Below, in pieces: positions 5,244 to 20,813 of a DNA stretch of 64,000 nucleotides (positions are counted from its first letter, which is position 1; each line of letters starts with the position of its first letter). Below the pieces are notes generated by a model that was not told where the DNA came from, did not search any database, and saw only the letters and a program-made list of their open reading frames with translations. Source of the stretch: an uncultured Verrucomicrobiota bacterium (GTDB lineage Bacteria; Verrucomicrobiota; Verrucomicrobiia; Palsa-1439); assembly GCA_964541945.1 (NCBI GenBank), contig CAZISE010000020.1, forward strand, positions 1,530-65,529, written 5' to 3'. A program made the position numbers and the translations under genes.

Positions 5244-6152
5244 TTAGTGCGGTCTGCCTCGTTGGACAAATTGCGAGGGCGAAAGTCCATACACTTTCTT
5301 GAAGGCCCGCGAAAAATGGTACGCATCCGCGAATCCCATTTCCTCCGCCACTTCCTTGACCAGGCGGTCGGAACCCAACAATCGGTCGGCGGCGTGGTTC
5401 ATCTTCAACCGCATCAGGTAATGGTACGGGCTGTTGTGCCCGAATCGGCGGAACAAGCGGCACAAATACGCCTGCTCCACATGACAGGCCGCCGCCACTT
5501 GTTCCACGGTTCGCAACTCACCGTAATGCTGCTCGATGTGTCGTCGGCAGCGTTCGTAGGTCGCAAACGCGCGCGTCGCTGCCGACCCGAACGGGATGGC
5601 GCTTTCCGCAATTTTCAATACCAGCAACTCGACCTGCAGCGCCAAAATCCGCGGGGTATATGGCGTGCGATGCAGCCCGTTGCGAATAAGGTCGTCGAAC
5701 AAGGCCAGCACTTCGCTTGGCGCGGAAGTTTGAATGATCGTGCCCGGTTTTGGCGCGTTACGTCGTAGCAGTGCCTCGGCGTTCTTCCCGGTAAAGTCCA
5801 CGAAATACTTCACCAATGTTTCCTTCGGATCCGAGACGATGTGTTGCGCCACTCCCGGCCCGTAGGAAAACAGCGTCCCCGGCGCCAGCTCCTGTTTGCG
5901 TCCGCCCAGGGTCAACTTCCCCTTTCCGCGCGCAACGAATTCGATGGACCAATATGGAAAACTTCGCCGACGAATCTCGTAATCGGGCGCGCAATGTTCG
6001 CAGCCACCGCAAACCACCGCCAGCGACACGGTCCGGGGCGGGTTCAGATCGAGGTAGAAACGCCGCCCCTCGGAGATTTGCATGGAGAAAAAATCCGGCT
6101 GTTGGCCCTCTTTCACAAGGAGCAGCTTCCACAAGCCTTCCGCCGAAGTCAA
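5244..6152 (-). CDS. AraC-family transcriptional regulator (N-terminal cupin/AraC-binding domain plus C-terminal double HTH).
   Basis: C-terminus EQVAAACHVEQAYLCRLFRRFGHNSPYHYLMRLKMNHAADRLL...VAEEMGFADAYHFSRAFKKVYGLSPSQF is a canonical AraC HTH_18 signature. It is divergently oriented to the epimerase operon. Confidence 0.9.
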   Translation of the reverse strand: MTSAEGLWKLLLVKEGQQPDFFSMQISEGRRFYLDLNPPRTVSLAVVCGGCEHCAPDYEIRRRSFPYWSIEFVARGKGKLTLGGRKQELAPGTLFSYGPGVAQHIVSDPKETLVKYFVDFTGKNAEALLRRNAPKPGTIIQTSAPSEVLALFDDLIRNGLHRTPYTPRILALQVELLVLKIAESAIPFGSAATRAFATYERCRRHIEQHYGELRTVEQVAAACHVEQAYLCRLFRRFGHNSPYHYLMRLKMNHAADRLLGSDRLVKEVAEEMGFADAYHFSRAFKKVYGLSPSQFVQRGRPH

Positions 6153-6242
6153 GAATGGACATCACAGAGTCAAGAACGGTCATTGTAACTTCCGGGGCAT
6201 CTTACTACAGTACGCGCGACATTGGACAGAAGGAGAACCGTC

Positions 6243-7286
6243 ATGAAAAAAGCCAAATACAGTTCGGACACACGGAAGGATGACCTGATTGTTGTCACCG
6301 GCGCCGGGGGATTTATCGGCGGCGCGCTGGTGCGTTATTTCAAGGACAAGGGATTCACCCGCCTCCGGGCGGTGGACAAGAAACCGTTGCCGCAATGGTA
6401 CCAGCGAATTGAGGGAGTCGAATCCCTGTGCCTGGACCTGACCAACGAAGAGTACTGTAAACGTGCCGTGGCCGGCGCCAGGGAAGTGTACAACCTCGCC
6501 GCTGACATGGGCGGGATGGGGTTTATCGAGCGGTTTCGCATCCAGTGCCTGCGCAGCATTCTCATCAACACCCATCTCATTGAGGCCGCCTACCATGCGG
6601 GAGTGGACCGTTATTTCTTCTCCTCCTCCGCCTGCGCCTACAACACCAAACTCCAGGAAGACCCGAATTGCCGCGCCCTGAAGGAATCGGATGCCTATCC
6701 CGCATTTGCCGAACGCGGTTACGGCTGGGAAAAATTGATGTCGGAAATGTTCTGTCAGGAATACTGGGCGGAACGAAAAATGAAGACCTTCATCGCCCGT
6801 TTCCACAACGTCTATGGCCCGTGGGGCACATGGGACGGCGGTCGCGAGAAGGCGCCAGCTGCGCTCTGCCGCAAGGTGATCGAGGCCAAATACGAGGGCG
6901 GCGGCACGCTCGAAATCTGGGGCGATGGCACGCAGACGCGCAGTTTCATGTATATTGATGACTGTGTGAAAGGCATTGATCTCATCATGCACTGCGACAA
7001 ACTCATCGCTACACCGGTCAACCTCGGCACCAGCGAGATGATTTCCATCAACGAACTGGCCAGCATCGCCGAGAAAATCGGTGGCATCCAACTCAAACGC
7101 GTGTATAAACTCGACGCGCCCAAGGGAGTGGCCGGCCGTAACAGCGACAATACGTTCATCAAGTCCGTGCTCGGTTGGGAACCGACAACGCCGATTCGCA
7201 AGGGCCTGGTGCCGACGTTCCGCTGGATCGAACAGCAGTACCTCGACCGCAAAGCCGGCAAAAAAACCGTCGAAGACCATCTCTAG
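6243..7286 (+). CDS. gme: GDP-mannose 3,5-epimerase homolog (GME-type NAD-dependent epimerase; GDP-D-mannose <-> GDP-L-galactose/GDP-L-gulose).
   Basis: Rossmann motif VTGAGGFIGG. Long GME-specific blocks YNLAADMGGMGFI, SSSACAYN, FHNVYGPWGTWDGGREKAPAALCRK, IWGDGTQTRSF and GRNSDNTFIKSVLGWEPT match plant and Methylacidiphilum GME nearly residue for residue. ATG at 6243 is preceded by aggagaa (SD) at the right spacing, so the track start at 6222 is probably 7 codons too long. Confidence 0.85.
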   Translation: MKKAKYSSDTRKDDLIVVTGAGGFIGGALVRYFKDKGFTRLRAVDKKPLPQWYQRIEGVESLCLDLTNEEYCKRAVAGAREVYNLAADMGGMGFIERFRIQCLRSILINTHLIEAAYHAGVDRYFFSSSACAYNTKLQEDPNCRALKESDAYPAFAERGYGWEKLMSEMFCQEYWAERKMKTFIARFHNVYGPWGTWDGGREKAPAALCRKVIEAKYEGGGTLEIWGDGTQTRSFMYIDDCVKGIDLIMHCDKLIATPVNLGTSEMISINELASIAEKIGGIQLKRVYKLDAPKGVAGRNSDNTFIKSVLGWEPTTPIRKGLVPTFRWIEQQYLDRKAGKKTVEDHL

Positions 7287-7292
7287 GACCGC

Positions 7293-8081
7293 ATGGCCGC
7301 CCGAAAGCTCACCGATATCATTGGCAACTTCCCGTACCGCATCGCGCTGGCCGGTGGTTGGATTGACCAGCCGTTTGTATCGGCGCACAATCCCGATCCG
7401 CCCGGCTCGATGGTGGTGATCAGCCTTGAACCGTTGTTCCCGTGGATGGACCGTTGCGGTATTGCCAGCAGCACCCGCCGCATCGCTCTCCAACGCTGGG
7501 GCCGTTTGCCGAAAGGCAACCCGCAGAAACGGGTGGAAGAATTGTACGAAGCCGAAAATCGTGGCAACCCAAATCCCTCCGGCTCGCAAGACATGATCGG
7601 TCTGCTCTACCCCGGCATCAGCCGCCTGGATTACGACATCCGTGTCAAAGGCGGATTTTTTCCCTGCCACATTGAGTCGTGCAACAATCCGAAAATCGCC
7701 CGCTGGCTGGAAACGGTCATCCGCGTGTTGCCTGTCGCGCCGCGTCCCGATGGCTACAGCCCGCTTGGCGTGAAAAATCTCGATCCGACCTGCATCGCCA
7801 GACTCGGACGGACCGGCAAGAACTGCTACGACGCCATTCTTGCCCGCGACGTGAAAAAACTCGGCCAATCCATGAACGACTGTATGGCTTGTTGGGAAAC
7901 CCTCATGCCCCATATCGTCCGCCATCCGACGATCAAGACCGATCTTGTCGCCCTTCTGAAGTATTACCAATCAAACTATCCCGGCGCCATGTACAGCGGT
8001 TGCGGTGGCGGCTATCTTTTCATTGCCTCCGAAGACCCTGTTCCCGGCACTTTCACCGTCAAAGTCCGCATCGCCCCATGA
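7293..8081 (+). CDS. Short (262 aa) GHMP-kinase-like protein (anomeric sugar kinase-like; resembles the N- and C-terminal motifs of fucokinase/heptose kinase).
   Basis: N-terminal YRIALAGGWIDQPF resembles the GHMP motif I of sugar-1-kinases (RISLAGGGTDLP). C-terminal SGCGGGYLFI resembles GHMP motif III (GAGGGGF). There is a weak glycine-rich middle motif PSGSQDMIGL. It is 7 bp downstream of gme. Confidence 0.45.
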   Translation: MAARKLTDIIGNFPYRIALAGGWIDQPFVSAHNPDPPGSMVVISLEPLFPWMDRCGIASSTRRIALQRWGRLPKGNPQKRVEELYEAENRGNPNPSGSQDMIGLLYPGISRLDYDIRVKGGFFPCHIESCNNPKIARWLETVIRVLPVAPRPDGYSPLGVKNLDPTCIARLGRTGKNCYDAILARDVKKLGQSMNDCMACWETLMPHIVRHPTIKTDLVALLKYYQSNYPGAMYSGCGGGYLFIASEDPVPGTFTVKVRIAP

Positions 8082-8800
8082 AACAGGTCATTGTCTCCGC
8101 CAGTTTCGACGACCTGCGGTCGCGTCACATCCGTCTCCTGGAAGAAGCCTCCAAACTCGGCCAGGTTCACGTCCTGCTCTGGTCCGACAAGCTGACCGGC
8201 AACCCGAAGTTTCCCGAAGCCGAACGGCTCTACCTGGTGCAGGCTGTTCGCTACGTCAGCAGTGTCCGTCTCGTGGACGATCCGCGTGACACCGGCCAAC
8301 TCAAACCCGACCTCTGGGTCAGCGAAACCGACCTGAAGCTCGACAGTGACGATTTCCCCGTTCCGCCGCCGATGCCGGGGCCGACGGGGCGCAAGAAGGT
8401 GGTCGTGACGGGATGTTACGACTGGTTTCACTCCGGACACGTTCGTTTTTTCGAGGAAGTCTCGCAGCTTGGCGACCTGTATGTCTGCATCGGTAACGAC
8501 GCCAATGTGCGCCTGCTGAAGGGCGAAGGGCATCCGCTTTTCCCGCAGGAAGAACGCCGTTACATGGTCGGTTCCATCCGCTATGTCAAACAATGCCTGA
8601 TCAATACTGGCACCGGCTGGATGGATGCCGCGCCGGAGATTGACCGCCTCAAACCCGACATCTACGCCGTGAACGAAGACGGCGATCGTCCCGAAAAACG
8701 CGAGTTCTGTGCGCAACACGGCCTTCAATATGTCGTGCTCAAGCGTACCCCCAAGGAAGGGCTGACAAAACGTTCGAGCACGGACTTACGTGGCTTCTGA
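8078..8800 (+). CDS. Tandem cytidylyltransferase-like (HxGH nucleotidyltransferase, RfaE-domain-II/TagD-like) protein. The N-terminal copy has a degenerate motif, the C-terminal copy is canonical.
   Basis: C-terminal domain TGCYDWFHSGHVRFF (G-x-F-D-x-x-H-x-G-H) plus IRYV...D downstream. N-terminal domain SASFDDLRSRHIRLL is a degenerate version. The ATG at 8078 overlaps the upstream stop (ATGA), giving translational coupling. The track ORF 7679..8800 has an implausible 133-aa leader. Confidence 0.6.
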   Translation: MKQVIVSASFDDLRSRHIRLLEEASKLGQVHVLLWSDKLTGNPKFPEAERLYLVQAVRYVSSVRLVDDPRDTGQLKPDLWVSETDLKLDSDDFPVPPPMPGPTGRKKVVVTGCYDWFHSGHVRFFEEVSQLGDLYVCIGNDANVRLLKGEGHPLFPQEERRYMVGSIRYVKQCLINTGTGWMDAAPEIDRLKPDIYAVNEDGDRPEKREFCAQHGLQYVVLKRTPKEGLTKRSSTDLRGF

Positions 8801-8833
8801 TTGTTTGGCCGTGGCGTCGGTATGCCAGCGGGA

Positions 8834-11224
8834 TTAGCGGGAAGCGGTCGCGGCGCGAACGAACTCATCCAGGCTGATCAATGACGTTGGTTTCTGATTC
8901 GCCTCGATTTTGGCAATGGTTTTTTCGATGGCAACGGCCAGTTCGTTTTGATCCTTGTTTTTTCGGTCTTTCTTGATAATCGCCTCGCGCATCTGACGCA
9001 GTTGCGGGAGCCACGGCGCGGCATGGCTGCCATACCGGGCGAGGTACTCCAGGTATTTCGGAATCCGATGGTTCTGTCCCCACCGCTCCGGCTCCATCAA
9101 TTCCACGCACATCGCCATGGCCTCACGAATCCGCAACCGCGACAACAGGTCCACTCCCGCCAGACGGATACCGTCGGCAAACATCTCGCCGCTGGGCGCG
9201 GGTTCTTTCACCGCTTTCACGATGAACGGCAGCAACGCGGCAATATCGCGCTCATCCAGATGCGGATAAATCCGCTGAAGCGAGCTGCGCGTGGTGCCGT
9301 CCTGGTTTTCGAGCACCGCTTTGATGGCCGGGTACAACAGCTCACGGTTCACGCCATCGAGCGACTCGGCCAGGATACTCTTCGGTTCGTGTTTTCCGGG
9401 ACGCGGTGAAAAGAGCGCGCTACAGGCGTACCGTTGTACCATGGCGCGGGGATCGGCGGGGTTGCGGCGAACGGTCAGCCGCAACAACTCCGGCACGGCC
9501 GCTTTTCGGGTGGCCGGCCCCATCTGGGGCAGTGCCTCGGCGGCGAGACATTGTAACCACGGATCGGGGTCCTGGAGCAACGCCAGCAGGCGAGGAGCCG
9601 CCGCCTCGGCCTTCGGGCCGAGCAATCCCAGCGCCTCGCAGGCGCCGTAGCGGGCATTCGGATTGGGACTGGCAAGCAGCGAAAGCAGGCGCGGCACAAA
9701 GTCGCCATCCCGACGACTCAACGCCTGTGCCGAACGTTTTCGCACGGCCGGCGACCAGCTCGACAAACCGGCCAGCAATGTCTCGGTATCGCGGTGGTCG
9801 TAACAGTTCTTTTCGGTCCAAAAACTGAAATCGCGTCCTGCCGCTATGACCTCGGCGGTTTCTTCGCGCGACAGAGGGGTGGCGGCGCCCGGTTTGCGTC
9901 CGGTCAGGTAGAGGCTTTTCAGCGGCAACGCATAGGTGAGCAGATAGGCTCCGGTGCAGTCCCAGTTGTTGTAACGGTGGCCGCCCCAATTGGCGGGCGT
10001 GCCCTGGTAGAGGAAGGTGCCGTCCCAGCCGCGGGCGAGGTCGTAGTACCAGGCGGTTTCCTTGAAGTACGCACTGGTGGCGAGCGGTCCGCAGCGGGAG
10101 ACGCCGGGTATGGCCCAGAGGATGTTAAAGAAGTTGCCGGTGTGGCCACTTTCGCGTTCGGCATAGGCGGCGGTGGCCATTTTGGCGAAGAAATTGGCCG
10201 CCTCGCGGTCGCCCAACAAGTCGTAAAGCACGGCGGCGCTGGAGCATTTGCCATTGTCCTCGTGCCACGGCCACGGGTCATGGTCGCCATACGGGATGGA
10301 GCCTTTTCCGACGTACCAGCGAAGGAACTGGGCCGATTTCAGGATGGCCCGGTCGAGCGCGGGATCATTCACTCCGGCCTCGCGCGCCAGTAACATGGCC
10401 AGCGTCAGGACGATGCCGGGCTGGTTCATGGCGCCGTAACCGTTGAGAATGCCGTCCGCGCGGGCAAAACCATGCCCCCACGTGCCGACACCGCTCTGGC
10501 CGCGGGCAATGTCGAGCGCGAGCCGTCGCAATCCATCAGCGACCGCCGCGTCGCGCGTGGCCAGCGCGTATTCGGCAAGAAACAGCGTCGCATAAGCATA
10601 CCCCCAGGTGACGTATCCGCCCGGCTGATGCGCGGCGACTTTGCGAGCATAGGCGGCAACCAGCGGCTGGTACTCGCTGCGTCCCGAAGCGAGCAACGCC
10701 AGCGCATTGAGGTCGTTGGGGATCGAGACATCTGCCAGCGGTTTTTTTGCGATGGCCCGGCAGCCCAGCTCAAAAATCCGTTGCGACTTCGCGCAGCCGT
10801 ATGGCGCGGTGTCGCTGTAGGCGCCCATCACGGGCAGTTTGAGTTCGATATTTTCCGTGTGGCCGCCGCGCCAGCGCAACAGGCGGAGAAGGCCGTGATG
10901 CGGTTCTTTCTCGGCTTCCGTGATGGCGTTGGCCAACTGAATCCGGGCATCGCCGTCAAATGGCTTGCCGTCAACTCCGAGGATCACATCGCCCCTGGTC
11001 AGCGCACCATCAGCAGGGGAACCTTTTGCCACGGCGGTCACCAGAATCTGACGGGCATCGGTGGTTTGTCCCTGGCGTCCGCTGATCCAGCCACGCGCAC
11101 CGGTCGGGCCGAGTGTCCAGTCGTGAGTGTCATCGGGTTTGTCGCCACGCGTGAAATCGGGCGCGGCCACAACGTGGAGCCCGAGCAGCCACAGCAAGGC
11201 GACGGCGAGAAGTGTTCTGCTCAT
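8834..11224 (-). CDS. Secreted PDZ-domain protein with a central alpha/alpha-toroid-like domain and C-terminal HEAT/PBS-lyase-type repeats (796 aa).
   Basis: Signal peptide MSRTLLAVALLWLLGLHVVAA. PDZ-like KGSPADGALTRGDVILGVDGKPF. Repeats ...NARYGACEALGLLGPKAEAAAPRLLALLQDPDPWLQCLAAEALPQMG typical of HEAT/PBS lyase. Confidence 0.65.
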   Translation of the reverse strand: MSRTLLAVALLWLLGLHVVAAPDFTRGDKPDDTHDWTLGPTGARGWISGRQGQTTDARQILVTAVAKGSPADGALTRGDVILGVDGKPFDGDARIQLANAITEAEKEPHHGLLRLLRWRGGHTENIELKLPVMGAYSDTAPYGCAKSQRIFELGCRAIAKKPLADVSIPNDLNALALLASGRSEYQPLVAAYARKVAAHQPGGYVTWGYAYATLFLAEYALATRDAAVADGLRRLALDIARGQSGVGTWGHGFARADGILNGYGAMNQPGIVLTLAMLLAREAGVNDPALDRAILKSAQFLRWYVGKGSIPYGDHDPWPWHEDNGKCSSAAVLYDLLGDREAANFFAKMATAAYAERESGHTGNFFNILWAIPGVSRCGPLATSAYFKETAWYYDLARGWDGTFLYQGTPANWGGHRYNNWDCTGAYLLTYALPLKSLYLTGRKPGAATPLSREETAEVIAAGRDFSFWTEKNCYDHRDTETLLAGLSSWSPAVRKRSAQALSRRDGDFVPRLLSLLASPNPNARYGACEALGLLGPKAEAAAPRLLALLQDPDPWLQCLAAEALPQMGPATRKAAVPELLRLTVRRNPADPRAMVQRYACSALFSPRPGKHEPKSILAESLDGVNRELLYPAIKAVLENQDGTTRSSLQRIYPHLDERDIAALLPFIVKAVKEPAPSGEMFADGIRLAGVDLLSRLRIREAMAMCVELMEPERWGQNHRIPKYLEYLARYGSHAAPWLPQLRQMREAIIKKDRKNKDQNELAVAIEKTIAKIEANQKPTSLISLDEFVRAATASR

Positions 11225-11236
11225 TGGTGATTCCGC

Positions 11237-12235
11237 TCAGCCCATCCATGGGCGCGAACGGTGACCGCCGGCTACGGCTTTGAGGGCCTGGTCGGCAATG
11301 GCGGTGTTTTCGACGACCTGGAAATCGAACATGCCGACGCAGAGGAAGTCGGCGCCGTTCTCGAAACACCATTGGAAGGCTTGTCGGGGATGAATCGCTC
11401 CGGCGGCTAGTGTTTTGAAGGCAATCCACGGTTTCTTCAAGGTCGCCATGTAATCAATGGTCTCCTTGGCGTCAATGCACCACATGTTGTCGTGATGCAG
11501 CCCGTGCTCGCGTTTGTTGCCGTTGACCTCGTCGAAGATGCGACGATTTTCCACCGGCGTGGCCGACCAGTAGTCGTCACGGTGAAGGGTTTTGACCCAG
11601 AAATCCACTTCGAATCCGGCTAGGACACACTCGCGGATCGTTTCCAGACAATGGGCGCCGATACCGTAGGGAACCTTCTGGGTTTGCATGAACTTCAGCG
11701 CCGACTCGATTTCGCCAAGCTGGCCGTCCTTGACCAGTTTGTCGCAGTAGCCGCCCTGCAGATAGATGGCGTGGGCGCCGTTGTCCACGGAACGTTTGAT
11801 GCCGTCCTTGAGGTTGCTCGTGGCGCAATCGGAGATCCACTGGATTTTACCACCCTGTTTCCAATACGCATTGATCACACGGTCGGAGACGGGGTTGGTC
11901 AACACCGTATTGATGCCGCGCCGCTCGGCCAGGCGGAAGGTTTCAAAAATTTTCTCATCCGTGTGGTACGCCTTGACCAACGGCGACACGTAGATGAGGT
12001 CGCGGCTGTGCGCCCAGCCGCCGATGAGATTGCCGCCGCAAATAATGCGGCTAACCTCCAGGTTCTTGATTTTTCCCTTCGGAAGCTCCAACGGATCTGG
12101 CATCGCAACCGCGGGCGTTCCCGCCTTGATCTCCGCGCTCAGTACCTGCTCCTCAAAACTGTGCCCCACCAACGCCGTGCTGCCGACCGCCAGCGAAGTC
12201 TTCAGAAAACCACGACGACCAATCTTCTTTGACAT
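11237..12235 (-). CDS. Tat-exported hypothetical protein (332 aa; function unknown).
   Basis: Twin-arginine signal MSKKIGRRGFLKTSLAVGSTAL. There is an uninterrupted ORF with good coding periodicity, but no confident family match. Confidence 0.55.
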   Translation of the reverse strand: MSKKIGRRGFLKTSLAVGSTALVGHSFEEQVLSAEIKAGTPAVAMPDPLELPKGKIKNLEVSRIICGGNLIGGWAHSRDLIYVSPLVKAYHTDEKIFETFRLAERRGINTVLTNPVSDRVINAYWKQGGKIQWISDCATSNLKDGIKRSVDNGAHAIYLQGGYCDKLVKDGQLGEIESALKFMQTQKVPYGIGAHCLETIRECVLAGFEVDFWVKTLHRDDYWSATPVENRRIFDEVNGNKREHGLHHDNMWCIDAKETIDYMATLKKPWIAFKTLAAGAIHPRQAFQWCFENGADFLCVGMFDFQVVENTAIADQALKAVAGGHRSRPWMG

Positions 12236-12341
12236 GGCACTCTCTCCGTTTGCGCCGAATCTACGCGGCCCGACGGCAGAGTCAAGAACAGATACCGCAG
12301 TATTGCCAACAACGGGCGGAGTCGGCTACAAAAGAGTTCCT

Positions 12342-13418
12342 ATGCGATACGCAGTCATCATGGCAGGCGGTTCCGGTACCCGGCTGTGGCCGATGAGCCG
12401 GGCCACACTGCCCAAACAACTGATCCCGTTCCTGCAAGGACGCAGTCTGCTGGACATCGCCGTGCAACGCCTCGACGGACTGGTACCGACAGAACGCTGT
12501 TACATCTGCGCCAACCAGGCCCACGCCAAACGAATTCCGCCACACCTGCCTTTCCTCGGCGAACCGGTCGGACGCGACACGCTCAACGCGGTCGGCTTCA
12601 CCGCCGCCGTCATCGCCCGACGCGATCCTGACGCCGTGATTGCCGTGTTCACTGCCGACCACATCATCGAGCCGATCGCTCAGTTCCAGAAAATCGTCGA
12701 ACACGGCTACCGTCTCGCCGAAGAATCGCCCAACACGCTCGTTACCTTCGGCATCGCACCCACCGCCGCCGCGACCGGTTACGGTTACCTGCAGCTTGCC
12801 GAGGCGATTGACGACTCGGCGCGTCGGGTCGCGCAATTCAAGGAAAAACCCGATCCTGCCACGGCCCAGCGCTATTTCGCCGCCGGCCCGACGCGGTATC
12901 TGTGGAACAGCGGCATGTTCGTCTGGCGCGCCGCCACACTGCTGGATTGTATCCGACGGTATCATCCCGAAAACCATGCCGGGCTGATGCGAATTGCCGA
13001 GGCGTGGGACACGCCGCAACGCGACGCCGTCTTGGCGACGGTTTTCCCGACGCTGAAGAAGATCAGCGTGGACTTCGCCGTGATGGAACCGGCCTCGCGC
13101 GACCCGCAGGTGCGCGTGGTGGCCGTGCCGATGCCGCTAAAATGGCTCGATGTCGGCTCCTGGCCGTCGTTTGCCGAGACATGTCCGAAGGACGCCGACG
13201 GCAATGCTCTGGCCGCCGGGCGCGTCCTGTTGATGGATACCCGTCGCAGTCTCATTGCCTCCAACGACCCGAAGCATCTGATTGCCACCATCGGCTGCGA
13301 AGACCTCCTCATCATCCACACGCCCGATGCCACGTTGGTCTGCCGCGCCGACCGGGCCGAGTCCATCAAGGAACTCCATCAACGTGTCGGCGAGAAATTC
13401 GGTAAGGAATTGATTTGA
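12342..13418 (+). CDS. manC: Mannose-1-phosphate guanylyltransferase (GDP-mannose pyrophosphorylase).
   Basis: MRYAVIMAGGSGTRLWPMSRATLPKQL is the canonical ManC/CpsB N-terminus, and the length is 358 aa. The track ORF from 11994 carries a spurious 116-aa extension overlapping the upstream gene in antisense. Confidence 0.85.
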   Translation: MRYAVIMAGGSGTRLWPMSRATLPKQLIPFLQGRSLLDIAVQRLDGLVPTERCYICANQAHAKRIPPHLPFLGEPVGRDTLNAVGFTAAVIARRDPDAVIAVFTADHIIEPIAQFQKIVEHGYRLAEESPNTLVTFGIAPTAAATGYGYLQLAEAIDDSARRVAQFKEKPDPATAQRYFAAGPTRYLWNSGMFVWRAATLLDCIRRYHPENHAGLMRIAEAWDTPQRDAVLATVFPTLKKISVDFAVMEPASRDPQVRVVAVPMPLKWLDVGSWPSFAETCPKDADGNALAAGRVLLMDTRRSLIASNDPKHLIATIGCEDLLIIHTPDATLVCRADRAESIKELHQRVGEKFGKELI

Positions 13419-13420
13419 TC

Positions 13421-14023
13421 ATGCAACCTTGGAAAACCATCTCCCGCCAGGTCGTTCGTGAGTTCGGCAAGTTTCTCACGGTGGAAGTGCATCAGATCGA
13501 GTTACCCGACGGGCGTCGGCTCGACAACTGGCCCTGGCTGGTCTCGCCGCATTTTGTGCTGGTCCTGCTGCGGACGGTTGACGGCCGATTTGTGATTTTC
13601 CGCCAGACCAAATACGCCGTCAAAGGTACCTCGCTGGCACCGGTGGGCGGTCACATCGAGGAGGGTGAGCGTCCGCTGGCCGCTGCCCGACGCGAAGCTC
13701 TGGAAGAGACCGGCTACGTGGCCGCTCGTTGGGTGTCGCTGGGCCGATTCGTCGTCAACGGCAATCACGGCAACGGCGGCGCGCATCTTTATCTGGGGCT
13801 GGACGCCCGTCGCACGACCGCGCCCAGCGGCGGTGATCTGGAGGAACAAAAGTTGTTGTTGTTAACCCGCCGCCAACTGGAAACGGCTCTCGACCGTCAT
13901 CAGTTCAAGGTCCTTGCCTGGTGCGCCCTGATTTTACAGGCGCTGCGTTACCTCGACCAAAAGGAGAAATCATCGCCATGCTCAAAACCGGCATCCTCAA
14001 CCCGCACATCAACTCGTTACTGA
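13421..14023 (+). CDS. NUDIX hydrolase (nucleoside-diphosphate-sugar pyrophosphatase type; candidate GDP-sugar hydrolase).
   Basis: Nudix box GGHIEEGERPLAAARREALEETG. The ATG at 13421 has aaggaa 8 nt upstream. The gene lies 2 bp after the manC stop. Confidence 0.75.
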   Translation: MQPWKTISRQVVREFGKFLTVEVHQIELPDGRRLDNWPWLVSPHFVLVLLRTVDGRFVIFRQTKYAVKGTSLAPVGGHIEEGERPLAAARREALEETGYVAARWVSLGRFVVNGNHGNGGAHLYLGLDARRTTAPSGGDLEEQKLLLLTRRQLETALDRHQFKVLAWCALILQALRYLDQKEKSSPCSKPASSTRTSTRY

Positions 14024-14367
14024 GCCGCATTCGTCACACCAACACGCTGGTCATTGCCGACCGCGGATTCCCCTTCTGGCCGATGATCGAGACGGTGGAC
14101 ATCTCGCTGGTGGACGATGTTCCGACCGTGCTCGACGTGCTCAACGCCATCCGCCCGAACTTTGTGATCGGCAAGGCATGGATGGCGCAAGAGTTCCTCG
14201 CCCACAACCGCGCCCCAACCCGCGCGGCGTTTGCCAGGGCCCTGGCCGGCATCCCGCTCGTCTATGAACCGCACATCGAGTTCAAGAAACGAATCCCGCA
14301 CGCCATCGGCCTCATCCGCACGGGCGACACCGTCCAGTACGCCAATCTCCTCCTGGAATCGGCCTAG
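13978..14367 (+). CDS. fucU: RbsD/FucU-family sugar mutarotase (L-fucose mutarotase / D-ribose pyranase).
   Basis: MLKTGILNPHINSLLSRIRHTNTLVIADRGFPF matches the RbsD/FucU N-terminal signature (H..D.G.P). There is a perfect SD aaggagaaat 8 nt upstream of the ATG at 13978. Confidence 0.8.
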   Translation: MLKTGILNPHINSLLSRIRHTNTLVIADRGFPFWPMIETVDISLVDDVPTVLDVLNAIRPNFVIGKAWMAQEFLAHNRAPTRAAFARALAGIPLVYEPHIEFKKRIPHAIGLIRTGDTVQYANLLLESA

Positions 14368-14463
14368 CACTGAAAGCGGTTGGTTGATTGTTGCCGGCGT
14401 TTTTCTTTGCGCTGGTCAAGCGCGCCGGGCGTGGTAGGCTTCCGCTCCGAGGAGTAACAAAAC

Positions 14464-16347
14464 ATGACGAGATTCGGACTGACCCGGTGGATGGTTTTGT
14501 GGTTTCTGGCGGTTGCAATCGGCGCGGAGGCAGGGACGGATACGGACTACTATCGGATCCGCGGCGGCATTCCCAATAGCCAGTATTTTTTCCAAAACGA
14601 CAAGGTCGGCAATCAATACCTGTTTTTCATTGGCAACACCGTGCTGGCCGGAAAGGGATTGAAGGACCAGAGCCTGCGGTACTCCGCGCAAATGGTAAAA
14701 GGGTTCAAGAAACATTTTCCACAAGCGGGGATCATTGAGACGCGGCACATGCAGCCGGGCGGAAGCTGGTTGGGATTGTATCGGTGCAGTCGGGGGCAAG
14801 CGGTGTTTGGGGAGGTGATCTGCAGCGGACATCTGGCCATTCTCGACTTTGCTGCCGATGACCGGAACATGGATATGGAGACGGTCAAGACCTCTCTGGA
14901 AGGGCTGGTTCGCCAGATCACGCTGTATCGGGCCACTCACAGCCGAATTCTCGTTTACACGCTAACCCCGGAGATGCTGGCGGCGTACAAAGACGGTCGG
15001 ACACCCGAATACATCAAGGTCTGCGAACAAATCGCGGATCATTACGGAATTCCCAGCCTGAACCTGGCCCGGTATGCGGCAGACAAGATTCTCTCCGGCG
15101 CGATTTCCTTCGCGGATTTTTCCGCCGACGGGATTCATCCGACCGATGCGGGAGCGAAGATTTACAACGAGGCCGTGGAAAAGTTCGTGGAGGCACTGAT
15201 GACGGCGTTTCCCGTTCCCGACAAACCCACCGCCTACAAGCTGCCGCCCGCCCTCTTTGCAGAAACCAACGACAATGGGCGCATCATCGCGTATGAGGAC
15301 CCGGTGGTGAAACGGTCCGGCTCCTGGGAACCAGGCCAGGCCAGTCCCATCGGCCCATTCCGCCACATCCTCGTTTCCAGCAAGGTCGGCGACACTTTGT
15401 CACTGAAGTTCAAAGGTTCGGAAATCGGGATCATGGATGTCGTGGATAAGGACAGCGCCGACCTCGAGTATGCGGTGGATGGCAGCGCGTTTCAAAAGCT
15501 CGCCGCACCCAAAGACACGGCAGCCCCGACAATGCGCGCCGTCGCGCTGGTCAAAGGATTGAACCGCGACGCCGATCATGAAATCGTCCTGAGAATCGCT
15601 TCCGACGGAACAACGCGCATGGGCGGGTTTCTGCTCAACGGCACCGTCGCGGACGCCTTTGCGGGGATGAGCACTCTGGAGAAGATTGACGCCATCTATG
15701 CCGCAATGGACCCAATCCGTTATACGCCGCCGACGGGACGGTTTGCGAACATTCCCCGAACAATGGACAAGCTCCACAACGGCGGTGAACTGCGGATGGT
15801 GCTGCTGGGCGACAGCATCATGGGCAACACCTCCGCCTCGTCGTTCGAGCTGTTGCTGATGAGGCACTACCCAAAATGTAAAATCATCAAGATCCCGTCC
15901 CTGCGCAGTTCCACCGGTTGCAAGTACTACCAGCAGGAAAACCGGGTCCAAGACTACGTCCTGAAACATCACCCGGACCTGCTGGTCATCGGCGGCATTT
16001 CCAACGGAGGCGACGCCGAGGCCGTCCGTTCCGTGATCCGACAGGTCCGCGCCCAAAAACCGGACACGGAAGTGTTATTGTTGACACCCGTGTTCGGCTC
16101 CGTCCGCGACGAACATATCCGGACCTGGACACGCGAGATTGACACCACCCGGAGCAATTTCCGCTGGAACCTGCAGAAGGTCGCCACCGAGGAGAAATGC
16201 GCCTTTTTCGACATGACCGGCCCGTGGTGGGAATACATCCAGAACAGCGGCAAAACCTACGGCTGGTTTATGGGCGACGCCGTTCACGCCAACGCGCGCG
16301 GCTGCCAGATCATCGCCCGCCTCCTGGAAATCTGGTTCAAGGAATAA
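14464..16347 (+). CDS. Secreted tandem SGNH/GDSL-hydrolase-fold protein (two SGNH domains; the first lacks the nucleophile Ser).
   Basis: Signal peptide MTRFGLTRWMVLWFLAVAIGAEAG. Domain 1 has FFIGNTVLAG (GDS->GNT) but retains DGIHPTDAG (DxxH block V). Domain 2 has MVLLGDSIMGN and GDAVHANARG. Confidence 0.75.
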   Translation: MTRFGLTRWMVLWFLAVAIGAEAGTDTDYYRIRGGIPNSQYFFQNDKVGNQYLFFIGNTVLAGKGLKDQSLRYSAQMVKGFKKHFPQAGIIETRHMQPGGSWLGLYRCSRGQAVFGEVICSGHLAILDFAADDRNMDMETVKTSLEGLVRQITLYRATHSRILVYTLTPEMLAAYKDGRTPEYIKVCEQIADHYGIPSLNLARYAADKILSGAISFADFSADGIHPTDAGAKIYNEAVEKFVEALMTAFPVPDKPTAYKLPPALFAETNDNGRIIAYEDPVVKRSGSWEPGQASPIGPFRHILVSSKVGDTLSLKFKGSEIGIMDVVDKDSADLEYAVDGSAFQKLAAPKDTAAPTMRAVALVKGLNRDADHEIVLRIASDGTTRMGGFLLNGTVADAFAGMSTLEKIDAIYAAMDPIRYTPPTGRFANIPRTMDKLHNGGELRMVLLGDSIMGNTSASSFELLLMRHYPKCKIIKIPSLRSSTGCKYYQQENRVQDYVLKHHPDLLVIGGISNGGDAEAVRSVIRQVRAQKPDTEVLLLTPVFGSVRDEHIRTWTREIDTTRSNFRWNLQKVATEEKCAFFDMTGPWWEYIQNSGKTYGWFMGDAVHANARGCQIIARLLEIWFKE

Positions 16348-16377
16348 CGCTCTTCATCGTCCAAGCAACCGGCCATT

Positions 16378-17379
16378 ATGAAGCTGTTTTTTGCTCTTCT
16401 GGCAGTCAGCGCCAACTTGTTTGCCGCCGAATTGGTGGACTACGGGCCGCTGGCGTTTCAGCCGGACACCTGGGCTGAGAAAAAACAGGACACCAGAATG
16501 CTGGCCTGGGAAGGCCGTGAGATTGTTTTTCTCACTCTGCCCGGCAACTACGATGCCCGTCTGATGGAACATTGGGTCCGGCGGCTCGACGAAGGTTGGG
16601 CGCTCTACGCCGACCTCACCGGGGCGCGGCCACGTCCCCTCAAACAACTGCACGGCAAAGCCACCATCGCCGCCGTGCCCGACGGGTTTACCTGCGGGGC
16701 CGGTTGCGGGTACATCGGCGCCACCGGCATTGAGCTTTCGATGTTCTACCACTCCAACTATCCGGCATTGAAAAAGAATCCCGACGCCATTCCGCACTAT
16801 GTTTTCTATGAGATGGGCCGCAATTTCTATACCTTTGGCGACCGCCATTCCTGTTTCATCACCGGGTTTGCCGTCTTCATGCGGTACGTTTGCATGGACA
16901 ACCTCCGATGCGCCGACAACGATCTGAAAACCCGCCAGACCATCGAAAAAGCCGAGTCGCTCATCGTCCGCGAGAACATGCCCTTTCTGAAAGCGTTTAC
17001 CAACGCCGGCGGCCTCACCGAAAAACAAGCCCGCCTCAAAATCCATCCCAGCGATCAACCCGTCATCTACGCCTCCGCCATGATGCGCCTCTACCGCGAG
17101 AACGGCGGCAACGACTGGCTTCGCCGCTTCTTCCGCGGCCTCGCCCAATCTCCCACTTCCAGACCCGACACCCGCGAGGGCGCCCTCCAGCAAAGTTGGT
17201 ACTGGTATCTTTGCGCCAGCCTTGCCGCCGGAAAAGATTTGTCCTCGGTGTTTGCAGACCGGTGGCGACTGCCACTGGCCACGACAACACGCCGCCAACT
17301 GGCCTCACTCGACTGGAAACAACCGGGGTTGTCGCCTGCCACCATTTCTGAACAAATCAAACCAGAATGGCTTCCATAA
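16378..17379 (+). CDS. Secreted hypothetical protein (333 aa).
   Basis: Signal peptide MKLFFALLAVSANLFAAE and an uninterrupted ORF. The antisense ORF 16354..17298 is GC-frame noise. Confidence 0.55.
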   Translation: MKLFFALLAVSANLFAAELVDYGPLAFQPDTWAEKKQDTRMLAWEGREIVFLTLPGNYDARLMEHWVRRLDEGWALYADLTGARPRPLKQLHGKATIAAVPDGFTCGAGCGYIGATGIELSMFYHSNYPALKKNPDAIPHYVFYEMGRNFYTFGDRHSCFITGFAVFMRYVCMDNLRCADNDLKTRQTIEKAESLIVRENMPFLKAFTNAGGLTEKQARLKIHPSDQPVIYASAMMRLYRENGGNDWLRRFFRGLAQSPTSRPDTREGALQQSWYWYLCASLAAGKDLSSVFADRWRLPLATTTRRQLASLDWKQPGLSPATISEQIKPEWLP

Positions 17380-18914
17380 AAAAATTTGCCCTCACCACCC
17401 TGACGTTGGCCGTCGCCGCCGTGGCGGCCGAACCGAAGCTCACCGGCGCGGCGAACAAACTCAACATCCTTGTCTTCCTCGTGGACGACATGGGGCTAAT
17501 GGACACGTCGGTACCGTTCCTCACCGACGCGGATGGCAACCCGAAACGTTATCCGCTCAACGACTATTACCGCACACCGAACATGGAACGGCTGGCGGCG
17601 CGCGGCATCCGTTTCAACCATTTTTATGCCATGAGCGTTTGTTCGCCGACGCGTGTTTCCCTGATGACCGGGCAAAACGCCGCCCGTCATCGAACGACAA
17701 ACTGGATCCATCCCGACATCAACAATCGCACCCCACAAGGTCCCGCGAACTGGAACTGGGAGGGATTGAAGAAGAGCGACATCACATTGCCGCGCCTGCT
17801 GGAAACGCACGGTTACCGAACCATCCACATCGGCAAGGGACATCTCGGCCCGCGAAATTTCGAGGGTGCAGACCCGCGAAACCTCGGTTTCGACGTCAAT
17901 GTCGCCGGCAGCGCCATCGGGCATCCGGGCAGTTATTACGGAGAAAAGAACTACGGCAACATCGGCCAAGGTCACAACGGGGTTCCGGGGTTGGAAAAAT
18001 ATCACGGTACCGCCACTTTCCTCACCGAGGCGTTGACTCTTGAGGCCAAAGCCCGACTCCGCGAGACCGTCCGCGATGGCAAGCCGTTCTATCTCTACAT
18101 GGCCCATTACGCCGTCCATTCGCCTTTCCAATCCGATCCGCGGTTTGCCGACCACTACAAAAATTCCGGCAAACCGCCGCCCGCGCAGGCATTCGCTACC
18201 ATGATCGAAGGCATGGACAAATCACTCGGCGACCTCCTCGATGAACTCGATGCGCTTGGCGTGGCCGACAACACGCTTGTCTTCTTCCTCGGCGATAACG
18301 GCACTGACGCGCCTCTCGGCCACCAACACGAGGTGGCCTGCGCCGCGCCGTTGCGCGGCAAAAAAGGCGCGCATTACGAGGGCGGAATGCGCGTGCCCTT
18401 CATCGCCGCGTGGGCCAAACCGTCTCCCGACAATCCACACCAGAAACGTCTGCCCATCCCCGCCGGCGCGATCCAGCCGCAACTGGCCTCCGTGTGCGAT
18501 CTTTTCCCGACACTGTTGAGCCTGCTCGACATCCCGAACCCGACAGGCCATATCGTGGACGGATTCCCCTTGAACACGTTGCTCACCGGTCAGCGCGATA
18601 CCAGCCGTCCCGAGGAATTCCTGATGCACTTCCCGCACTCCCACCGCAGCAGCTATTTTACCGTGTACCGACACGATGAGTGGAAGCTCATCTACCATTA
18701 TTTTCCTTCGGCAGAATCGGAAAACTCCCACTACCAACTCTACAACCTCGCCCACGACCCCTTTGAGCAAACCAATCTCGCCTCCGCACACCCCGAACGC
18801 CTCCGCGCAATGATGCAGGAATTGATCGCCGCGCTGGAGAAACAGAACGCCCTTTACCCGGTGGACAGAACCGGCCAGGAACAAAAACCGGTTCTGCCCC
18901 CGCCCAACCGCTAG
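17367..18914 (+). CDS. Sulfatase (formylglycine-dependent, arylsulfatase family).
   Basis: Signal peptide. LVDDMGLMD ... SVCSPTRVSLMTGQ (C-x-P-x-R FGly motif) ... GKGHLG. Confidence 0.9.
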   Translation: MASIKKFALTTLTLAVAAVAAEPKLTGAANKLNILVFLVDDMGLMDTSVPFLTDADGNPKRYPLNDYYRTPNMERLAARGIRFNHFYAMSVCSPTRVSLMTGQNAARHRTTNWIHPDINNRTPQGPANWNWEGLKKSDITLPRLLETHGYRTIHIGKGHLGPRNFEGADPRNLGFDVNVAGSAIGHPGSYYGEKNYGNIGQGHNGVPGLEKYHGTATFLTEALTLEAKARLRETVRDGKPFYLYMAHYAVHSPFQSDPRFADHYKNSGKPPPAQAFATMIEGMDKSLGDLLDELDALGVADNTLVFFLGDNGTDAPLGHQHEVACAAPLRGKKGAHYEGGMRVPFIAAWAKPSPDNPHQKRLPIPAGAIQPQLASVCDLFPTLLSLLDIPNPTGHIVDGFPLNTLLTGQRDTSRPEEFLMHFPHSHRSSYFTVYRHDEWKLIYHYFPSAESENSHYQLYNLAHDPFEQTNLASAHPERLRAMMQELIAALEKQNALYPVDRTGQEQKPVLPPPNR

Positions 18915-18921
18915 GTTTGTT

Positions 18922-20802
18922 ATGAAAATCCTGCTCCCAGTCCTCCTCTCATGGCTCGTCACCGTCACGTTCGCCGCGGAGAAAACCATTCCGCCACCGC
19001 CACCCAACATCCTCTTCATCCTCGCCGACGACCTCGGCTGGCGGGACGTCGGTTGTTACGGCAGCACCTTCTACGAGACACCCCACATTGACCAACTCGC
19101 CGCCCGAGGAGCACGATTCACCCAGGCATATGCCGCCAACCCGCTCTGTTCGCCAACCCGCGCCAGCATCCTCACCGGTCTCCACCCCGCACGCATCGGC
19201 ATCACCGCGCCCGCATGCCATCTCAAGGAAGCGCAACTCGAAAAGAAACTTGCCACCCCCAATCCCAACACACGCGTCATCCCCGCCGACAGTCTCACGC
19301 GCTTGAAACCCGACTACTTTACACTTGCCGAGGCGTTGAAGGAGGCCGGCTACGCCACCGCTCACTTCGGGAAATGGCATCTCGGATACAACGGCCCCTA
19401 CGAACCGAAAGATCAGGGGTTTGATTTCGACTTCCCTCATACCCCAGCCGCTCCCGGTCCCGGTCCGAGCTACCTTGCGCCGTGGAAGTTCATCAAGGAC
19501 CCTCCGATCGAAGCGCCACCAGGCACGCACATCGAGGATCGCATGTCGCAGGAAGCCGCTCAATTCATCCGCCAACACAAAGACAAACCGTTCTATGTGA
19601 ACTATTGGGCCTACTCCGTCCACTCACCGTGGAATTGCCGACCCGATTACCTCGAACATTTCAAAAAGAAAGTTAACAAGGATGATCCACAACGCAACCC
19701 ACTCTACGCCGCCATGGTCAAGAGCCTCGACGACGCCGTGGGACGCCTGCTCGCCGCCGTGGACGAAACCGGCATCGCCAACCGCACCATCATCGTCTTC
19801 TTCTCCGACAACGGCGGTCATGCCTACCCGCCAGAGAAAACCACCCCCGGCGGATTCACCAATATCCCAGCCACCAGCAACCTGCCTTTGCGCAGCGGCA
19901 AAGCCTCCATCTATGAGGGCGGCACCCGCGAACCGTGTATCATCATCTGGCCGGGTAAAACCAAGCCCGGCACCACCCTCGACGCGCTCTTCCAGAGCGT
20001 GGATTTTTATCCGACGTTGCTGGCCATGTGCGGACTCAAACCGCACTCCGACCTGAAACTCGACGGCTTTGATCAATCCAACACGCTCCTCGGCCAACCG
20101 TCGCCACGCGACCGCGTCTTCTGCCATTTCCCGCACGGGAGTAAACAACAAGCCGTCAACATACCCGGATTCCAACCCAGCACCTACGTCCGCAAAGACG
20201 ACTGGAAACTCATTCGCTTCTACGCCGACAACGACGACGGTTCCGACCGCCTTGAACTCTACAACCTCAAAAACGATCCCGGCGAAACCAAAAACCTCGC
20301 CGCCGAGAACCCCGAACTCACCCGCGAACTCAACAACCTTATCAGCGGTTTCCTGCGCGACACCGATGCCGTGATACCCATCCGCAACCCGAATTATGGC
20401 GTCGTCTCGACGTCCCCGGACGACCCGCTCCAGAGCTGGAAAGCCCGCGGGTGCGACGCCATTGTCAAAGATGGCATCGTCACTGTGACCGGCAAAGCCA
20501 ACAGCCCGTTCCTCGGTGTCAGCGCCAACATCCGGGGACCCGCCACCGTGAAACTCCGCGCTCGTTGCCCTCACGGCGGCGACGGCAAAATCGAATGGCT
20601 ACCGCCCGGCAAGAACCCGGTTCCTGTTCGGTCTGTCCCATTCGCTCTTTCACCCGGCGACTGGCAGGAGGTGACTGTGGATGTGCCTGCCGAAGACCCC
20701 ATCGGCATCCTCCGTATCTATCTTCCCGCCCGGAAACAATCTGTCGAGATTGACTGGATTGAACTCAAAGCCGGTGCTACCCTGCGTCGCTGGAACTTCT
20801 AA
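18922..20802 (+). CDS. Sulfatase (formylglycine-dependent) with an extra C-terminal beta-sandwich-like domain.
   Basis: [15 protein letters not shown] ... [13 protein letters not shown] ... GKWHLG, 626 aa. Confidence 0.9.
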
Positions 20803-20813
20803 CAACATACCTA

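Follow-up and report, generated by a model that had tools for sequence, protein, structure and literature searches.

A manC–NUDIX–mutarotase gene trio of an uncultured Verrucomicrobiota bacterium as a possible detached module of a GME-centred L-hexose route

In an uncultured Verrucomicrobiota bacterium (GTDB lineage Verrucomicrobiia; Palsa-1439), the genes of a mannose-1-phosphate guanylyltransferase (ManC), a NUDIX hydrolase and a mutarotase of the RbsD/FucU family lie one behind the other in tightly coupled reading frames. They are located in a stretch of 64,000 nucleotides (nt) of contig CAZISE010000020.1 (assembly GCA_964541945.1, positions 1,530 to 65,529 of the forward strand), which we call the window and whose coordinates are used throughout. 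A cassette of genes around GME, a GDP-mannose 3,5-epimerase, lies 3.5 kb upstream of the trio, parted from it by two genes of the opposite strand. The question raised by this locus is what joins a GDP-sugar pyrophosphorylase, a hydrolase and a mutarotase, and whether the trio works together with the GME cassette, as an earlier reading made from the sequence alone (the sequence-only reading) had proposed. In our view it is about as likely as not that the trio represents a distal module, now detached, of a Leloir-like route under AraC control and centred on GME, by which mannose metabolism would take up L-galactose or a similar L-hexose.

The architecture of the trio is as compact as had been described. 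The sequence and translations give a gap of 2 nt between the manC stop codon (ending at 13418) and the NUDIX start codon (13421), and 46 nt (13978–14023) shared by the NUDIX and RbsD-type frames. Both values had been given by the sequence-only reading, the second approximately, and both are exact. The Shine–Dalgarno sequence that it had ascribed to the mutarotase gene is also present, AAGGAG at 13961–13966, 11 nt ahead of the ATG; the NUDIX gene has AAGGA ahead of it at 13404–13408, within the 3' end of manC. The junctions are spanned by contigs of other public metagenome runs (Table 1), with no insertions or deletions listed between 13400 and 14400. Thus, the overlap is neither an assembly artefact nor a sequencing frameshift. 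The layout, including the two intervening genes, is the same in contigs of four other runs, none of which has manC straight after the cassette. Nor is the trio an accident of one strain: it occurs in three of the four genomes of the genus, namely the genome of the window (G000) and two further ones, G002 and G003, where the overlap is 43 nt. In the fourth, manC runs off the contig end. The junction of the manC stop and the NUDIX start is conserved in four genomes of two genera, including G014 of another genus, which has the manC–NUDIX pair alone. The genes are presumably co-transcribed. The last 13–15 or so residues of the NUDIX protein are an extension present only in G000, G002 and G003, and nine aligned homologues stop earlier. 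Apparently, the overlap arose by read-through into the mutarotase gene after that gene had been placed there. The mutarotase frame is −1 relative to the NUDIX frame; fusion of the two proteins by a −1 frameshift was considered and rejected, since no slippery heptamer was seen in the overlap.

The first protein matches NTP_transferase (PF00483, 120 bits) and the ManC beta-helix (PF22640, 55 bits) in Pfam, both above the cut-off. Its residues 8–25, AGGSGTRLWPMSRATLPK, fit GGxGxRLxP...PK, the N-terminal nucleotide-binding signature of ManC/GMP. The NCBIfam model of the bifunctional GMP/PMI (TIGR01479) gives 252 bits at a cut-off of 373 and is covered from position 3 to 345 of 467. With 358 amino acids (aa), the protein is without the C-terminal isomerase part and is therefore monofunctional. 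It is the sole ManC match in G000, and every genome searched has one ManC match. A strong Gmd (503 bits) is encoded elsewhere in G000, the Gmd-like genes being on contigs other than that of the window; no gmd, fcl or manB was found in the window. Since the only ManC coexists with a strong Gmd, the ManC of the window presumably has to supply the cell with GDP-mannose.

The second protein is a NUDIX hydrolase (Pfam PF00293, 49 bits, above the cut-off) with an intact Nudix box GX5EX7REUXEEXGU (residues 77–99, GHIEEGERPLAAARREALEETGY). Its best match in the Protein Data Bank (PDB) is Bd3179 of Bdellovibrio, a NudF/NDPSase entry (E 2.4e-11, 47 bits). Most of its PDB matches carry the name ADP-ribose pyrophosphatase, and among the 13 at E ≤ 0.01 there was no NudK or Gmm entry. 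The NCBIfam scores are below their cut-offs for NudE (25.8 bits, cut-off 169), for TIGR00052 of the YffH/AdpP subfamily (21.9, cut-off 79.6) and for MutT (17.4, cut-off 148). In the description of Bd3179 consulted here (PMC4629899), this enzyme is an NDP-sugar hydrolase that prefers GDP-mannose over ADP-ribose. The same description gives Pro 15 residues past the last Gly of the Nudix box as the marker of ADP-ribose pyrophosphatases (ADPRases), and Asp-X-Lys on the C-terminal helix, about 65 residues past that Gly, as the marker of NDP-sugar hydrolases (NDPSases). The position of the ADPRase marker is occupied by Asn113 in the window protein, and no Pro is present in that stretch in any of 12 aligned homologues. 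To judge by these residues, the substrate leans away from ADP-ribose, which the sequence-only reading had regarded as the specificity that would speak against it.

The third protein had been described as a FucU/RbsD mutarotase and as acting on L-fucose/L-galactose. It turned out that its sequence is of the RbsD type, with 86 bits for the D-ribose pyranase model and 17.2 bits for the L-fucose mutarotase model, the cut-off of which is 141. The Pfam family RbsD_FucU is matched above the cut-off (88.8 bits, residues 1–128). In alignments, the blocks HT, IAD, H.EFK and IRTG..YAN, which have roles in RbsD, are identical to those of Bacillus subtilis RbsD (1ogc) and of 3p12. The 129-aa subfamily is large and highly conserved: 7993 of 8000 scored sequences match at E ≤ 1e-20, and the top 120 are 78–99% identical. 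Its orthologues reach 74–93 bits with the D-ribose pyranase model, and close relatives bear 'D-ribose pyranase' as their public name. It is solely the gene neighbourhoods that point to a role of the L-galactose or L-fucose type.

These neighbourhoods were surveyed in the phylum, where 27 of 401 sampled genomes have the mutarotase. Fourteen loci were fetched and 13 scanned with Pfam (L124, a near-duplicate of L123, was omitted), with 78 of the 164 open reading frames (ORFs) of at least 200 aa picked by hand. In five of the 13 loci the mutarotase gene adjoins those of an aldo-keto reductase and a Zn-dehydrogenase, accompanied by an Amidohydro_2 protein in three, an AraC protein in two and an MFS transporter in one. 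It stands beside LacI and a symporter in two loci and beside GH43 and GH2 in one; the remainder are uninformative. Beside it, neither a PfkB ribokinase nor a clear ribose transporter was found in the window, the 13 scanned loci or those of the relatives. As described in the part of the literature consulted (PMC11199699), the non-phosphorylating L-fucose/L-galactose routes start with a mutarotase, a 1-dehydrogenase and a cog3618 lactonase. By analogy, the set of mutarotase, aldo-keto reductase and Zn-dehydrogenase resembles the start of such routes. The five genomes with this oxidative-looking cluster have no cassette orthologue at 55% identity or more, and G000 has no close orthologue of the oxidative-route enzymes with the queries used. 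Two further observations concern G000. It has a second gene of the RbsD/FucU family (C68:4183-4596, L016; 138 aa, 31% identical) that scores 44 bits as FucU and 39 bits as RbsD and is flanked by a DUF3450/TolA-like gene and by a 226-aa ORF without a Pfam match, past which lies a DUF5610 gene. A homologue (67%) of the L123 MFS transporter is present at G000:C1:217006-218937 in three separate pieces and may be frameshifted or interrupted.

The upstream GME operon, reported as lying nearby, is genuine. The epimerase matches the plant GME structures 8sg0 and 2c59 over its full length (residues 23–345, 260 bits; E 3.5e-76 and 1.8e-74, respectively). The next gene codes for a member of an unnamed family, unk262, which is very large: of 8000 candidates scored, 7774 match at E ≤ 0.001. 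Built from 20 members, a profile gave sub-threshold matches only, on two GHMP motifs of the Bacteroides fucokinase/GDP-fucose pyrophosphorylase (E 0.27). The AlphaFold (AF2) model of the protein (pLDDT 72, pTM 0.77) is most similar in Foldseek to WcbL, the fucokinase part of FKP, HddA and galactokinase (E ~2e-4, TM ~0.6), and its phosphate-loop motif is divergent. On the basis of this model, we predict a GHMP-like sugar-1-kinase. The third gene of the cassette encodes a cytidylyltransferase-like protein whose two homologous halves are seen in related loci; in the window they form one frame of about 240 aa with no stop between them. Counting the kinase, whose type comes from a pLDDT-72 model with TM ~0.6, the mutarotase, anomeric kinase, nucleotidyltransferase, epimerase and exit pyrophosphorylase types all lie within 8.2 kb. 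A second, distant group of unk262 (31–40% identical, open frames of about 380–600 aa) was noticed in 43 of the 401 sampled genomes, for example at G411:C1:4040920-4041633.

To relate the trio to the cassette, we compared 41 relatives closely and made a wide scan anchored on the GHMP-like gene, in which the best 80 of 568 stretches encoding a relative of it were used. A match was a tblastn hit at E ≤ 1e-8 with at least 50% query coverage, and 59 of the 80 loci have at least 3 kb downstream. According to the record titles, the loci span Verrucomicrobiota, Planctomycetota, Chloroflexota, Latescibacterota, Acidobacteriota and Spirochaetota. GME was present in 69 of them, the cytidylyltransferase-like gene in 65, an AraC orthologue adjoining GME in 24, manC in 16, the mutarotase in nine and NUDIX in three. 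For a single-copy gene, the chance of lying in any given 10-kb stretch of a genome a few Mb in size is well under 1%. All 16 copies of manC (nine in Verrucomicrobiota, four in Chloroflexota, three in Planctomycetota) are on the same strand as the GHMP-like gene and 0.84–2.3 kb behind it. The mutarotase gene is downstream in five loci and divergent upstream in four, in at least three phyla.

Individual loci show how the parts fit together. In L068 the order is unbroken: AraC, GME, GHMP-like gene, two cytidylyltransferase-like genes, manC and NUDIX; the two intervening genes of the window are missing there, and manC comes straight after the cassette. In L090 and L095 both the mutarotase and manC stand behind the cassette, and in L065 NUDIX does so without manC. 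The same is true of G006, a genome of the same family and another genus, where the mutarotase gene flanks AraC on the side away from GME, and GME is followed by the GHMP-like gene, two cytidylyltransferase-like genes and NUDIX; behind the mutarotase there are genes of a sodium:solute symporter and a GH3. Among the sampled genomes of the phylum, six of the seven with a cassette orthologue have a NUDIX homologue (E ≤ 1e-30), compared with nine of the 394 others. When all ORFs of the 80 loci were clustered and 33 of the 53 recurrent cluster representatives scanned with Pfam, the recurrent neighbours included GH29 alpha-L-fucosidase and LacI (seven loci each) as well as a symporter, an ABC ATPase, GH43 and an apiosidase-like protein. 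The GH29, GH43, LacI, symporter and ABC ATPase genes give the surroundings of the cassette a catabolic flavour. Glycosyltransferases were found neither among the 33 scanned representatives nor beside the cassette or trio of the window.

The ancestry of manC also speaks for a link with the cassette. A maximum-likelihood tree with 38 rows was built from 18 hand-picked relatives out of 40, four manC–NUDIX genomes and 16 cassette-linked copies (a partial copy from G001 was omitted); its rooting is by midpoint only, and long branches meet at the root. The ManC of the window belongs to a 100/100 clade of 19 on a long branch, and this clade includes all 14 cassette-linked ManCs of Verrucomicrobiota and Planctomycetota in the tree (12 from the wide loci, together with G028 and G038). 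Nine other fetched ManCs of the window's own family form a separate 99/98 clade. Among them are those of G006 and G019, in which the cassette is present with no manC inside it. As each genome has one ManC, the cassette-type gene has apparently replaced the native manC in the genus of the window as well as in G014 and G011. A different ManC clade is used by the four Chloroflexota cassettes, so it may be ManC activity as such that the cassette recruits. A ManC that doubles as the housekeeping enzyme would also explain why this gene survives where the cassette is gone.

Regulatory signals were compared between the two parts of the locus. An exact 13-nt motif is shared by the regions upstream of GME and manC. 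It has two copies only in the 3.95-Mb G000, with about 0.1 expected, and a shared 13-mer between these regions was reached in 0 of 200 shuffles. Similar direct repeats were seen by eye in the AraC–GME spacers of 21 other loci from several phyla (among L029–L105), with a spacing of about 21 nt, the core GTCAAnAAT...CAT and, in several Planctomycetota loci, a third, GME-proximal copy. Such a repeat, at 6140–6180 in the window, is likely the operator of the cassette's AraC regulator. By way of the second motif copy, the same regulator may act on the trio.

The route that these genes would form begins with a free sugar, the anomers or ring forms of which would be equilibrated by the RbsD-type protein. 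The GHMP-like protein would phosphorylate C1, and the tandem cytidylyltransferase-like protein would convert the sugar phosphate into an NDP-L-sugar. GME, working in reverse, would turn GDP-L-galactose into GDP-D-mannose. From there, pyrophosphorolysis by ManC would give mannose-1-phosphate and GTP; alternatively, NUDIX would give mannose-1-phosphate and guanosine monophosphate irreversibly. Phosphomannomutase and mannose-6-phosphate isomerase would lead on to fructose-6-phosphate, and G000 has four genes of the PMM/PGM family and a type I PMI. As to the history of the genus, the module would have become separated from the cassette, and the mutarotase gene would have been placed behind NUDIX, giving rise to the 46-nt overlap, while the cassette-type ManC would have become the only GDP-mannose synthase of the cell.

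A number of observations weigh against this reading. The whole trio is restricted to the three genomes G000, G002 and G003 among the 41 relatives, and in the 80 cassette loci the three genes never occur together; NUDIX itself is rare beside the cassette. The co-occurrence that the sequence-only reading had looked to stands for each single gene, which recurs beside the GME cassette elsewhere, and not for the exact trio, which does not extend beyond one genus. In G002, separate contigs hold the trio and the cassette. In G003 (96% complete), the trio is present, and neither GME nor the GHMP-like gene was found; both were likewise not found in G014 (99%) and G011 (91%), which have the cassette-type ManC. 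The proposed sharing of L-sugar nucleotide metabolism with the GME operon is supported in part, by the recurrence of the trio's members beside the cassette; G003 speaks against an obligatory link. Five of the six genomes with both NUDIX and the cassette belong to one family, and the genes are dispersed there. Within 1.5 kb of fourteen more distant NUDIX homologues of the phylum (35–54% identity), the only gene of the trio or cassette kind is that of one GME-like short-chain dehydrogenase/reductase (SDR) epimerase 43% identical to GME, and the neighbours of these homologues are mixed (Pfam, nine loci, 41 of 91 ORFs). At the NDPSase marker site, the NUDIX protein has Lys163 at +65 in the triplet Gln-Phe-Lys instead of Asp-X-Lys; of the 12 aligned homologues, five have Glu-Phe-Lys and one has Asp-Phe-Lys. 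The mutarotase reaches 86.2 bits with the D-ribose pyranase model at a cut-off of 93, its best PDB matches are the D-ribose pyranases 3p12 and 1ogc, and a FucU homologue (2wcu) follows at E 0.006. In 18 genomes of another family, the mutarotase occurs without a cassette orthologue. Upstream of manC, the genomes G002, G003 and G014 have not kept the 13-nt motif, and on the reverse strand this motif contains TTGACT, which the promoter scan read as the −35 element of the divergent gene.

Several of these points would be expected if manC and NUDIX formed a housekeeping module of the GDP-mannose pool, in which ManC makes GDP-mannose, the coupled NUDIX trims it, and the mutarotase is a passenger brought in by local rearrangement. 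manC is known to be paired with a Nudix gene in the E. coli colanic-acid cluster, as manC–gmm (wcaH), and NudK offers another parallel. The only ManC homologue of a genome with Gmd elsewhere must serve biosynthesis, the manC–NUDIX junction is kept in two genera, G014 has the pair with neither cassette nor mutarotase, and G003 has the trio with no cassette found. The genus-specific tail of NUDIX also suits a passenger. However, NUDIX stands behind the cassette without manC in G006 and L065, and the mutarotase has joined the cassette in at least two arrangements and at least three phyla. Moreover, the ManC comes from the cassette-linked clade and not from that of its own family, and gmd, fcl and manB are missing from the window. 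We consider this explanation unlikely.

Quite unlikely, in our opinion, is the biosynthesis or salvage of GDP-L-galactose (or GDP-L-gulose) for envelope glycans. Here ManC and GME in the forward direction would act de novo, the mutarotase, kinase and nucleotidyltransferase would recycle free L-galactose, and NUDIX would clear surplus or side-product GDP-sugars. The gene set and its co-location agree with this as well as with the catabolic route. Recycling of L-fucose by Fkp with FucU is a parallel, and ManC ahead of GME is the plant order of reactions. The bacterial GME is presented as a biosynthetic enzyme, of lipopolysaccharide (LPS) or antibiotics, in the published accounts as far as consulted (PMC8787198, PMC6678494). 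Against this stand the lack of glycosyltransferases in the scanned recurrent clusters and beside the window's cassette and trio, the sugar-utilization regulators AraC and LacI, and the glycoside hydrolases and transporters that recur nearby. In addition, the substrate of a mutarotase and of an anomeric kinase is free sugar that has been imported.

If the public annotation were correct, a D-ribose pyranase and a housekeeping ADP-ribose pyrophosphatase would be adjacent by accident. The near-cut-off pyranase score, the RbsD proteins among the best PDB matches, the public name of the relatives and the names of most NUDIX matches all favour this. Hydrolysis of ADP-ribose gives ribose-5-phosphate and not free ribose, so the NUDIX and the pyranase would remain uncoupled. 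No ribokinase or clear ribose transporter accompanies the mutarotase in the loci searched, the ADPRase Pro marker is absent, and the repeated association with the GME cassette would go unexplained. We regard this view as improbable. An outward, Smirnoff–Wheeler-like flux, in which ManC, GME and NUDIX would produce L-galactose-1-phosphate, and a phosphatase and the mutarotase would yield free L-galactose and an ascorbate-like or lactone end product, is very improbable: the GME is of the plant type, NUDIX could replace GDP-L-galactose phosphorylase and the mutarotase acts on the free sugar, but no L-galactose dehydrogenase-like or lactone oxidase gene is present in the window, the GHMP-like kinase would oppose this direction, and the regulators and hydrolases are of the catabolic type.

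The GME-centred inward route has relatives among known systems. The Leloir pathway for D-galactose and its pyrophosphorylase (Isselbacher) variant, with GalM, GalK, GalT or UDP-sugar pyrophosphorylase, and GalE, follow the same logic. Both have the same order of enzyme types, that is, a mutarotase, a GHMP-type anomeric kinase, a nucleotidyltransferase, an SDR epimerase and a pyrophosphorylase that releases hexose-1-phosphate. In the route proposed here, GDP would take the place of UDP, and the 3,5-epimerase GME that of a 4-epimerase. Its mutarotase belongs to the RbsD/FucU fold and not to that of GalM, a short GHMP-like protein of an unnamed family, with a divergent phosphate-loop motif, would serve as the kinase, the transferase has the cytidylyltransferase-like (HIGH) fold, and NUDIX would add a hydrolytic exit. 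With Fkp and FucU of Bacteroides it shares the proposed conversion of a free L-sugar into beta-L-sugar-1-phosphate and GDP-L-sugar, and the fucokinase part of FKP is among the best fold and motif matches of the GHMP-like protein. Fkp is one fused protein with a pyrophosphorylase of the NTP_transferase type and serves glycan synthesis, whereas here the parts are separate, the transferase fold is another one, and GME with ManC/NUDIX would tie the product to mannose metabolism.

The Nudix NDP-sugar hydrolases include E. coli NudK/GDPMK and Bd3179; of the solved relatives the latter comes closest, at an overall similarity that is low (47 bits). In comparison with the colanic-acid module (manB, manC, gmd, fcl, gmm), only manC and the Nudix gene adjoin here, the Nudix box is canonical, and its relatives are of the ADPRase type. 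The plant Smirnoff–Wheeler pathway (VTC1, GME, GDP-L-galactose phosphorylase) has the same pairing of a ManC-type enzyme with GME, and the window's GME is plant-like. Plants run this pathway outward to L-galactose and ascorbate, whereas the kinase-like gene, the mutarotase and the catabolic-type regulators here point inward, and no HIT-family phosphorylase is present. Luteolibacter sp. LG18 of the same phylum uses L-glucose and L-galactose by the lgu pathway, which has an oxidative non-phosphorylating start according to the part of the report consulted (J Bacteriol 2025, PMC12632266). That report describes L-galactose dehydrogenase (NADP-dependent) and L-galactonate dehydrogenase (NAD-dependent), both proven, an AraC-type regulator 'Btr' and, in the lguG cluster, a gene annotated 'rbsD'. 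Orthologues of the window mutarotase occur in similar-looking clusters with aldo-keto reductase and Zn-dehydrogenase genes, a likeness to LguA and LguD at the level of cluster appearance. LG18 oxidizes the free sugar, whereas in G000 no close orthologues of those enzymes were found and the GDP-sugar cassette is present.

In the literature, we found no description of such a GDP-sugar route of L-galactose or of the cassette. It is possible, with somewhat less than even confidence on our part, that the trio and cassette represent an undescribed, horizontally mobile Leloir-type L-galactose pathway with an RbsD-fold mutarotase, a new family of anomeric kinases, reverse GME and a dedicated ManC clade, with or without a GDP-sugar Nudix, in which the native ManC was displaced in some Verrucomicrobia. 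If so, the bacterial GME would gain a physiological role beyond sugars of LPS and antibiotics, and the 129-aa 'D-ribose pyranase' subfamily with its thousands of members would need re-annotation as L-hexose mutarotase. It would be a third bacterial way to use L-galactose from algal and plant glycans, besides the oxidative routes, and a case of a catabolic cassette replacing the housekeeping gene manC. Its enzymes would be of practical use for making GDP-L-sugars.

Table 1. Features of the window around the trio and contigs that span its junctions
Feature	Coordinates	Strand	Remarks
AraC-family regulator	5244..6152	-	Pfam HTH_18, HTH_AraC, AraC_binding; divergent from the GME operon; start codon uncertain
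13-nt motif, copy 1	6165..6177	+	AraC–GME intergenic region; second of two direct repeats spaced 21 nt
GME	6243..7286	+	Pfam Epimerase; phmmer against PDB
GHMP-kinase-like protein (unk262)	7293..8081	+	262 aa, no Pfam match
Tandem cytidylyltransferase-like protein	8078..8800	+	Pfam CTP_transf_like; start overlaps the unk262 stop by ATGA (8078-8081)
Two intervening genes	8834..12235	-	DUF6288/PDZ/HEAT protein; 332-aa protein with a weak TAT-signal match below the Pfam cut-off
13-nt motif, copy 2	12277..12289	+	Ends 14 nt before the −35-like TTGCCA
Promoter-like TTGCCA-18 nt-TACAAA (putative)	12303..12332	+	Blocks conserved upstream of manC in G000, G002 and G003
manC	12342..13418	+	ATG 12342, stop TGA 13416-13418, 358 aa; monofunctional mannose-1-phosphate guanylyltransferase, cassette-linked clade
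NUDIX hydrolase, NDP-sugar pyrophosphatase type (probable)	13421..14023	+	ATG 13421, stop TGA 14021-14023, 200 aa
RbsD/FucU-family mutarotase or pyranase	13978..14367	+	ATG 13978, stop 14365-14367; 129-aa subfamily
Weak terminator-like hairpin and T-run	14379..14408	+	After the trio; 3 terminator-like sites found, 2.1 expected, not above chance
Spanning contig, X3 record 1	6200-14400		
Spanning contig, X4 record 14	11465-14001		
Spanning contig, X8 record 32	13335-14400		

The promoter-like blocks ahead of manC were not called by the consensus promoter scan, which found no plus-strand promoter-like site. The hairpin behind the trio folds no better than shuffled sequences (z-score −0.37). Of the two genes between the cassette and trio, that of the 332-aa protein also flanks manC in G002, where two paralogues are in the same place. 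The protein belongs to an unnamed family of Planctomycetota and Verrucomicrobiota, and an atlas search led to unnamed clusters only. A 596-aa ORF on the minus strand (6180-7970), which runs antisense to the genes of GME and the GHMP-like protein, matched no family and was rejected as spurious, being typical of GC-rich DNA; such antisense frames recur in related loci. Directly after the trio, the plus strand carries a tight array (14464-22859) of a GDSL esterase (627 aa), a 333-aa protein without assignment, two sulfatases and a second GDSL gene. In G003, its GDSL esterase/sulfatase part (14464-21500) has not been kept behind the trio. With a weak GH43/BNR-like match below the Pfam cut-off, the array looks like a polysaccharide-processing set.

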